Part shown: in pieces, positions 11,934-15,188 of the stretch | How positions within the stretch are numbered: the first letter of the stretch is position 1 | Layout of the letters: every line of letters begins with the position of its first letter | From: Anaerolineae bacterium | Lineage (GTDB): Bacteria; Chloroflexota; Anaerolineae; S140-20 | Assembly: GCA_027021705.1 (NCBI GenBank) | Contig: JALUTT010000029.1 | Span: 1-15,858, forward strand | DNA: 15,858 nucleotides | Direction: 5' to 3' | Translations under genes and position numbers: made by a program | The notes under the pieces: model-generated | What the model saw: only the letters and a program-made list of their open reading frames with translations | Databases searched by the model: none | Told to the model about the DNA's origin: nothing

Positions 11934-12571
11934 CCCTCCCGCAGGTGCCCCACGTGACCTGCGGGAGGGTGACAGAAGCCCTCCCGCAGGTGCCCTCCAC
12001 GGCCAGAAGCGCGTCGTAGATAGCCTTCGGCAAGCTATGGTGGTTGTCGAGCACCGCGTGGCCTGCGGGAGGGTGACCCCGCAGGTGCCCTCCACGGCCA
12101 GAAGCGCGTCGTAGACAGCCTTCGGCAAGCTATGGCGGTTGTTGAGCACCGCGTGACCTGCGGGAGGTGACAGAAACCCTCCCGCAGGTGCCCTCCACGG
12201 CCAGAAGCGCGTCGTAGACAGCCTTCGGCAAGCTATGGCGGTTGTCGAGCACCGCGTGGTCTGCGGGAGGGTAACAGAAGCCCTCCCGCAGGTGCCCTCC
12301 ACGGCCAGAAGCGCATCGTGGACAGCCTTCGGCAAGCTATGGTGGTTGTCGAGCACCGCGTGACCTGCGGGAGGGTGACTCCCGCAGGTGCCCTCCACGG
12401 CCAGAAGCGCGTCGTAGACAGCCTTCGGCAAGCTATGGCGGTTGTTGAGCACCGCGTGACCTGCGGGAGGGTGACTCCCGCAGGTGCCCTCCACGGCCAG
12501 AAGCGCGTCGTAGATAGCCTTCGGCAAGCTGTGGCGGTTGTTGAGCACCGCGTGACCTGCGGGAGGGTGAC
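11934..12571. repeat. Tandem array of ~95 bp inverted-repeat-bounded units (REP/REPIN/BIME- or MITE-like): 6 full units plus 1 mini-unit
   Basis: Unit CCCTCCCGCAGGT + 69-nt core + ACCTGCGGGAGGG. Mini-unit 11934-11969; full units at about 11979-12073, 12078-12167, 12177-12271, 12281-12375, 12379-12471, 12475-12567. Confidence 0.95.
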
Positions 12572-12577
12572 ACTGGG

Positions 12578-14619
<2,042 letters not shown>

Positions 14620-14620
<1 letters not shown>

Positions 14621-15015
14621 CAGCGGCTACATCTCCCTTCTCCGTAGGCCGTCGTCTGACCGGTGCGGAAGGAGTGGCCGCACCCGCAGGTGGCGACGGC
14701 ATTGGGGTTGTCAATGCGGAAGCCGCCTCCCATCAGGTCGTCCACGTAGTCAATGGTGGAGCCCTGGAGGTAGAGCAAGCTGGTGGGGTCTACGATGAGC
14801 CGGACTCCGCCGCTCTCGACGACGATGTCCGACGGCTGGGGGTGGGCTTCGAAGGTCATCCCGTACTGGAGGCCAGAGCAGCCACCGCCGGAGACGAAGA
14901 CGCGCAGACCGTGATCGGTCAGGTTGCGCTCCTGGAGCAGCTTCTGCAACTGGCTCGCTGCCGCTTGGGTCAGGGTGAGCACGGCCGATTCCGAGGGTGC
15001 GACGGGGATACTCAT
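14620..15015 (-). CDS. iscA: A-type Fe-S cluster carrier (HesB/IscA/ErpA family)
   Basis: GGGCSGLQY and [14 protein letters not shown] carry the three conserved Cys; GGAGG RBS; TGATG overlap with yyaL. The subfamily (iscA, erpA or sufA) cannot be resolved by eye. Confidence 0.93.
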
Positions 15016-15076
15016 GGGTTGACCTCCCTTCCTTTCCTTTCCTTGGCTATCCCGGACTCTCCGACCGTTGTCAGCC

Positions 15077-15175
15077 CACCCTCCCGCAGGTCACCGGTCG
15101 AGGGCGCTTTCAGCCCCGATGGGCTATTTAAAGCACGGTTTCACGTCGGAAATGCGCCTAACCTGCGGGAGGGTG
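15077..15175. repeat. Solo copy of the inverted-repeat element with a divergent 69-nt core
   Basis: CACCCTCCCGCAGGT (15077-15091) ... ACCTGCGGGAGGGTG (15161-15175), a perfect 15-bp inverted repeat; core 15092-15160 is 69 nt. Confidence 0.9.
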
Positions 15176-15188
15176 AACAGTTACCGAA

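Follow-up and report, generated by a model that had tools for sequence, protein, structure and literature searches.

The solo element at positions 15,063 to 15,184 of the window (the whole 15,858-nt stretch of DNA that was analysed, contig C29 of the source genome, G000) is very probably a copy, damaged at its left tip, of a ~122-bp non-autonomous transposon (an IS66/ISBst12-type MITE). Such elements have as their tips the terminal inverted repeats of insertion sequences from the ISBst12 group (IS66 family), and the arms that lie inside the tips are a MITE-specific subterminal inverted repeat, which is not present at the ends of the full-length insertion sequences that we examined. The first-pass annotation had singled this place out as a candidate for an undescribed system; IS66/ISBst12-type tips and 8-bp target-site duplications were found instead. 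The element belongs to a real repeat family, apparently an undescribed MITE family of a known kind, and in being a MITE it is selfish DNA of an ordinary sort. We did not find the family described in the full-text literature on the arm sequence, on MITEs of Chloroflexi and Anaerolineae, or on ISBst12/IS66 MITEs.

The reading as a MITE draws on a patchy distribution, the intergenic position of the copies, nested intermediates, 8-bp duplications and the match of the tips to published termini. Against it stand the solo copy itself, which is without a target duplication and has a non-canonical left tip, and our failure to find any full-length element that carries the arms among the loci set out below.

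Anatomy and copy number of the element

The solo element has the same arms as the nearby tandem array and a spacing of 69 nt, both exact in the window as had been claimed (Table 1). The two strings quoted for it in the first-pass annotation, CACCCTCCCGCAGGTCAC (15077-15094) and GTGACCTGCGGGAGGGTG (the right end of the array), were likewise found in the window, and the central hairpin AGCCC-CGAT-GGGCT is present in the solo core. Allowing up to two mismatches, the 13-nt arm matches the window at 21 places, against 2.29 expected and a maximum of 8 in 200 shuffles. The full unit of the family to which the solo element belongs, family A, is longer than the 99 bases originally flagged, since tips of 11-16 nt (GTAxCTxTTCA...) lie beyond the arms; from one end to the other it consists of a tip (11 or 16 nt, resembling GTAACTGCTCA), an arm of 13-14 nt, a ~69-nt core, the arm again in inverted orientation and a second tip, ~122 bp in all.

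The right tip of the solo element is the commonest family A right tip (59/164 copies) and agrees with the terminal repeats of ISDge4 as excerpted from PMC12898284. Contigs carrying other copies part from the window at 15182-15186 on this side, and on the other side they part from it left of 15072, their consensus ending GTATCTAT. Inspection of the window sequence revealed no 8-bp duplication around the solo copy; judged from its sequence, this copy, with its damaged left tip, has probably been rearranged and is immobile. Two further claims about its relation to the array did not hold. The solo element had been described as inverted relative to the array; both of its ends bear the same arm, and as the arms are symmetric its orientation cannot be read from them. 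The residual similarity claimed between the solo and array cores was not above chance when the consensus cores of family A and of family B, the family of the array, were compared with shuffled sequences: local alignment scored 9 for the same strand, a value that 320 of 1000 shuffles reached, and 8 for the reverse complement, reached by 539 of 1000, with ungapped identities of 17/69 and 16/69, respectively.

Table 1. Features of the window, and terminal repeat types found around arm-core-arm units in G000 and other genomes
Feature	Position	Strand	Basis and remarks
Tandem array, family B arm-core-arm units	11934..12573	-	Period 96, 3 copies, 96% matches; B cores clustered
DUF255/thioredoxin-like gene, flanking	12578..14620	-	PF03190, E = 6.5e-78; array begins 4 nt past stop codon
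Fe-S cluster biosynthesis family gene, flanking	14620..15015	-	PF01521, E = 4.9e-21
Left tip region GACCGTTGTCAGCCCA	15063..15078	+	Inner 8 nt similar to family tip (..TTCAGCCTA); outer 8 nt non-canonical
Left arm CCCTCCCGCAGGT	15079..15091	+	Exact match; 442 such arms genome-wide at up to 1 mismatch
69-nt core, family A	15092..15160	+	Core clustering; 164 genome copies
Right arm ACCTGCGGGAGGG	15161..15173	+	Exact match
Right tip TGAACAGTTAC, 11 nt, IS66/ISBst12-type terminus	15174..15184	+	Reverse complement GTAACTGTTCA
B1 tips GCTACCTGACC..	G000, around B cores		Duplication ~8 bp, e.g. cggcggga at C63
B2 tips AGGGCTTTTCA..	G000, around B cores		Duplication 9 bp, e.g. ccctcaggt at C48
Type C tips GGGTG.RTTTCA	Other genomes		Duplication 9 bp; few copies
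Type D tips TCACTACCCGACA	Other genomes		Duplication 11 bp in L067; few copies
Types E and F tips	Other genomes		Two further types; few copies each

Genome G000 (5.19 Mb, 183 contigs, 66% G+C) contains 874 arms at up to one mismatch, spread over 104 contigs. A plot of arm-to-arm spacing, the check put forward with the original observation, gave the sharp peak looked for: of 348 neighbouring left-to-right arm pairs, 238 have a spacing of exactly 69 nt and 304 one of 66-70 nt, and the 34 pairs at 5-55 nt are internally deleted copies. When the 305 units with 60-75 nt between their arms were clustered, 164 fell into family A, 130 into family B and three into one further family, leaving eight singletons. 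The core had been thought free to vary. Within the genome it is not, since 294 of the 305 elements belong to two families, and the sharp peak there is largely a reflection of these two amplified families; across Anaerolineae the proposal fared better, with 47 further core clusters bearing the same arms. A search for the family A core that was independent of the arms recovered 159 places with a mean identity of 0.96 to the consensus. Crude gene calls place 143 of the 164 copies in family A and 126 of the 130 in family B between genes, and relative to neighbouring genes 30 A copies lie in the same and 54 in the opposite orientation (30 and 32 for B).

The family B array in the window opens with a core-less pair of arms 10 nt apart (11934-11969), followed by six units that start at approximately 11979, 12075, 12177, 12281, 12377 and 12473 and are joined by linkers of 1-9 nt; genome-wide, 41 of 93 full-length B units lie in such arrays. 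Elsewhere in G000, C176:64959-65286 holds a tandem run of three units whose 66-nt cores belong to a third family; their arms mostly end in ...AGGC / GCCT..., a one-base variant also seen in genome G072. On the side of the solo element, the Fe-S cluster gene has its start codon at a distance of 47 nt from the tip region (15063) and of 63 nt from the arm (15079). Just upstream of this start codon the pentanucleotide TCCTT is repeated four times (window 15025-15044), with one unit fewer in one contig of run X2 (5 nt omitted at 15029).

Terminal repeats, target duplications and distribution

The consensus left tip of family A is GTATCTATTCAGCCTA and that of the other side is TGAACAGTTAC, such that the element has terminal inverted repeats, GTATCTATTCA(GCCTA) and TGAACAGTTAC. 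The same layout recurs in other genomes as GTAACTGCTCA(GCCTA)-arm ... arm-TGAGCAGTTAC, flanked by exact 8-bp direct repeats of the target; examples of 8-bp duplications elsewhere are attactgg (L026), gctccaat (L090), ctccttgg (L008), aatgcccc (L109) and gaattctg (L075). In G000, an 8-nt duplication (0-2 mismatches) lies exactly outside the tips in 67 of 164 family A copies, as compared with 4 of 164 when the left window was shifted by 3 nt as a control. Tips and arms are closely associated in this genome: an arm follows in 119 of the 124 matches to the left tip and in 140 of the 159 matches to the short tip. A target duplication of fixed length, a small size (~122 bp), the lack of coding sequence and a high copy number (305 units in 5.19 Mb) are the marks of a MITE, and ends that start with GTAA together with an 8-bp direct repeat are those of the ISBst12 group. 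As excerpted from PMC11946415, IS66 has terminal repeats of 20-30 bp and direct repeats of 8 bp. The excerpt of PMC12898284 gives terminal repeats GTGACTACTCAGCA and GTAACTGCTCAGCA and an 8-bp direct repeat for ISDge4 of Deinococcus geothermalis (IS66 family, ISBst12 group), and the likeness to our element lies in repeats that begin GTAACTGCTCAGC / GTGACTACTCAGC and in the 8-bp duplication. Unlike such an insertion sequence, the element is without a transposase gene, measures 122 bp rather than ~1.6 kb and has 13-nt arms that are absent from the full-length elements examined.

Full-length, single-gene ISBst12-type elements with the same tips and 8-bp duplications were found in other Anaerolineae at L120 (908-2495, duplication gattcccg), L127, L119, L133 and L125, and such partner elements share the same 11-14-nt tips. 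A further, complete element of 1573 bp at L147 (97-1669, duplication gggtcaag) has these tips as well, and its transposase shares 100% identity across 400 aa with the one encoded by genome G140, in which 76 copies carry the arms. Because the tips are of the ISBst12 type and 8-bp duplications accompany them, the element was probably moved in trans by a DDE transposase of the ISBst12 group that cut the target in a staggered manner. The assembly of G000, a genome that is 95% complete, has no gene for an ISBst12-type transposase; repeats are often missing from assemblies. The sole PF03050 match in G000 is a canonical IS66 TnpC (322 bits; L112, C134:1-1419) on a 1.4-kb contig without element ends, which may be an unplaced repeat or a contaminant. 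The TnpC gene on this contig is preceded by the apparent end of an upstream open frame. No empty sites were seen in the run contigs compared with the window, and these contigs break inside repeats.

Exact arm pairs 55-80 nt apart were present in 26 of 401 sampled Anaerolineae genomes, with 185 pairs in G000, 76 in G140, 21 in G325, 17 in G072, 16 in G030 and 15 in G363, besides others, and in none of three genomes of the same family as G000. A phylum-wide sample yielded pairs in 3 of 301 genomes, one of them with 161 copies, and exact arm pairs occurred on one viral contig. A scan of one genome per species returned at least 104 stretches, and among the matches listed all titles were those of Chloroflexota MAGs; the arm-pair pattern read backwards gave no match anywhere.

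The arms, their spacing and the arm-core-arm unit

No arm, at up to two mismatches, was found at the element ends of any of 28 Anaerolineae IS66-family loci or of 58 loci from metagenomes that are related to the G140 transposase, L147 included, and none of these 28 + 58 loci revealed a full-length ISBst12-type member bearing the whole terminal repeat (tip plus arm). Short G140 contigs with an IS66 transposase end inside the gene. In G000, apparent full-length elements bounded by arms at left-to-right distances of ~730 and 1300-1370 nt were rejected as chance two-mismatch matches in coding DNA, the only shared pair in that search being one 840-nt duplicate, and orphan arms considered as element ends were truncated copies or chance matches. 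Within copies found by their core alone, conservation in family A is 0.97-0.98 for the arms, 0.96 for the core and 0.77-0.85 for the tips, and in family B 0.96-0.97 for the arms and 0.85 for the core. The weaker conservation of the family A tips argues against a simple burst driven by the terminal inverted repeats. Where the arms vary, the change is identical on both arms of an element, as in G072 (..AGGC) and G100; in the latter, an IS66-tip element at C38:25753-25875 carries CCCTTGCGAAGGT as both arms, with three changes from the canonical arm. Tips and arms together could form a 25-bp paired stem that would hold the two ends together or offer a second binding site, and thereby favour the amplification of so tiny an element.

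The arm-core-arm unit also occurs within MITEs of at least six further terminal repeat types (Table 1), and thus of at least seven including the IS66 type with its 8-bp duplication. The edges of the unit are constant in all tip contexts (A/CCCTCCC...GGGAGGG/T, slashes marking the edges), and armless IS66-tip MITEs are common elsewhere (35 in G167, 21 in G121 and 18 in G187). These sharp edges and armless MITEs, the absence of arms from all the full-length insertion sequence ends examined, the stronger conservation of arms and core than of tips, and variants that alter both arms together would suit a reading in which the arm-core-arm unit of ~95-97 nt stands on its own, as a hairpin module able to move or to be inserted, as a “parasite of MITEs” or as a DNA species that repair reuses as filler, and the tips are only its current carriers. 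Such a self-standing hairpin would spread between unrelated miniature transposons either by structure-specific insertion or because any short element gains from its stem as a substrate. We consider this unlikely. Neither a target duplication nor a constant target was found directly at the arm edges, no candidate enzyme was found, and G000 yielded no “empty” family A tip pair without the unit.

Nested copies bear on the same question. At C27:55631-55860 in G000, a AGGGCTTTTCA-type MITE encloses an arm unit that has a single IS66-type tip, an intermediate that follows the ordinary MITE-in-MITE route, and at C117:37286-37379 the core of a family A element is interrupted by a B2-type MITE; these nested insertions show past mobility and that insertion of one MITE into another happens. 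B2-type elements have the arm-core-arm unit inside, and a related armless form that shares the AGGGCTTTTCA-type ends is represented in G000 by at least seven ends. The B1 and B2 cores are separate sub-lineages, never mutual nearest neighbours among 23 units, as would be expected from rare capture followed by ordinary amplification. Taken together, MITE-in-MITE insertions and separate B1 and B2 sub-lineages make rare nesting, trimming and amplification the most economical account: in the units with other tips (B1, B2 and C-F), one MITE would have inserted into another, been trimmed, and then been amplified by other transposases. Against random trimming after nesting, the trimming always stops at the arm edges, which this account leaves unexplained. 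In another Anaerolineae genome, a c-di-AMP riboswitch (RF00379, 87.4 bits; L019 37-201, minus strand) lies ~80 nt from the tip, and ~100 nt from the arm, of an arm-bearing element of type F.

The first-pass annotation regarded the spacing as constrained, as in a measured substrate; on such a reading the arms would be paired sites for a protein, a transposase accessory or a host nucleoid protein, that needs them at a fixed distance of ~69 nt. Beyond the canonical-arm peak in G000 (238 of 348 pairs), this is consistent with 96 of 106 elements in other Chloroflexota genomes at 65-71 nt, with median spacings of 65-71 nt in 45 of 49 core clusters that have no detectable similarity to one another or to A and B, and with five other genomes that together have 145 pairs at 55-80 nt, 10 at 25-54 nt and none at 81-110 nt. 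Against a fixed distance stand the one-base arm variant CCCTCCCGCAGGC (..CAGGC) of G072, which has 24 copies at 55-80 nt and 32 at 81-110 nt, the persistence of internally deleted copies both in G000 (34 pairs) and in the five other genomes (10 pairs), and the many sizes of IS66-tip MITEs. Among 151 genomes, 2 have such MITEs with tip-to-tip gaps of 55-84 nt and 12 have gaps of 116-145 nt; in a larger sample, gaps of 85-115 nt occur in 20 of 401. We think it quite improbable that the arms mark out a measured substrate. The spacing searches required exact arms, which biases the sample to one young lineage, and for this reason we attribute the 69-nt peak mainly to common descent with few insertions or deletions, and to weak selection on size at most. 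In the lineage with canonical arms, the 65-71-nt spacing may thus go back to one founder, few indels and perhaps weak size selection, with no strict ruler. A general size preference of ISBst12-tip MITEs was not supported as the cause of the peak, as several size classes exist.

Related elements and structural readings

Correia/NEMIS, RUP and ERIC elements are likewise ~100-150 bp long, non-coding and present in many intergenic copies, with a transposase presumed to act in trans. As excerpted from PMC3189936, MITEPsy1 is also alike in its size (~100-150 bp), terminal inverted repeats, target duplication, lack of coding sequence, many intergenic copies and presumed transposase in trans. The present family differs from MITEPsy1 in that a conserved subterminal arm pair with its spacer is common to elements whose terminal repeats and duplication lengths differ, and in that the arms are better conserved than the termini. 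For transposon biology, the interest lies in a miniature element whose most conserved part is a subterminal arm pair without counterpart in the parental insertion sequences, and in the presence of one arm-core-arm unit within miniature elements of at least seven terminal types. Should the arms make very short elements more mobile, they may reflect a general physical demand that DNA shorter than its persistence length has to satisfy in order to be moved; were the unit a self-standing module after all, it would amount to a generic “MITE chassis” riding on several transposases at once in Chloroflexota. On a practical level, these repeats break Chloroflexota genome assemblies and mark horizontal exchange within the class.

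A gene for a structured small RNA, or a cis-regulatory RNA, closed by a stem of the two arms, would account for strong folds (-54.8 and -58.5 kcal/mol, z = -4.7 and -5.9) and for the many copies within operons. We hold it to be highly improbable, given that the elements had no Rfam match at gathering or E-value thresholds in the window and 14 loci, that the consensus fold of 123 distinct B units is the arm stem alone with no conserved inner helix on either strand, that both orientations to neighbouring genes occur and that the cores are unrelated between families.

REP/REPIN sequences with RAYT are ~100-nt hairpin-forming doublets with a preferred spacing and hundreds of copies. A REPIN-like doublet was among the earlier suggestions; its mobilisation by a RAYT (Y1/HUH) transposase would fit a hairpin-forming doublet of ~100 nt with hundreds of copies between genes and the two Y1_Tnp proteins of G000 (PF01797; 92.4 and 84.3 bits), but is scarcely credible for elements that have DDE-type 8-bp target duplications, IS66-type tips, an arm that is not itself palindromic and no RAYT association, both RAYT-type genes being flanked by other repeats with no arm within 6 kb. 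These genes, at L110 (G000:C14:14609-17953) and L111 (G000:C49:16325-19669), each lie in their own distinct palindromic repeat array, and G000 thus carries at least two REP/RAYT systems besides its MITEs.
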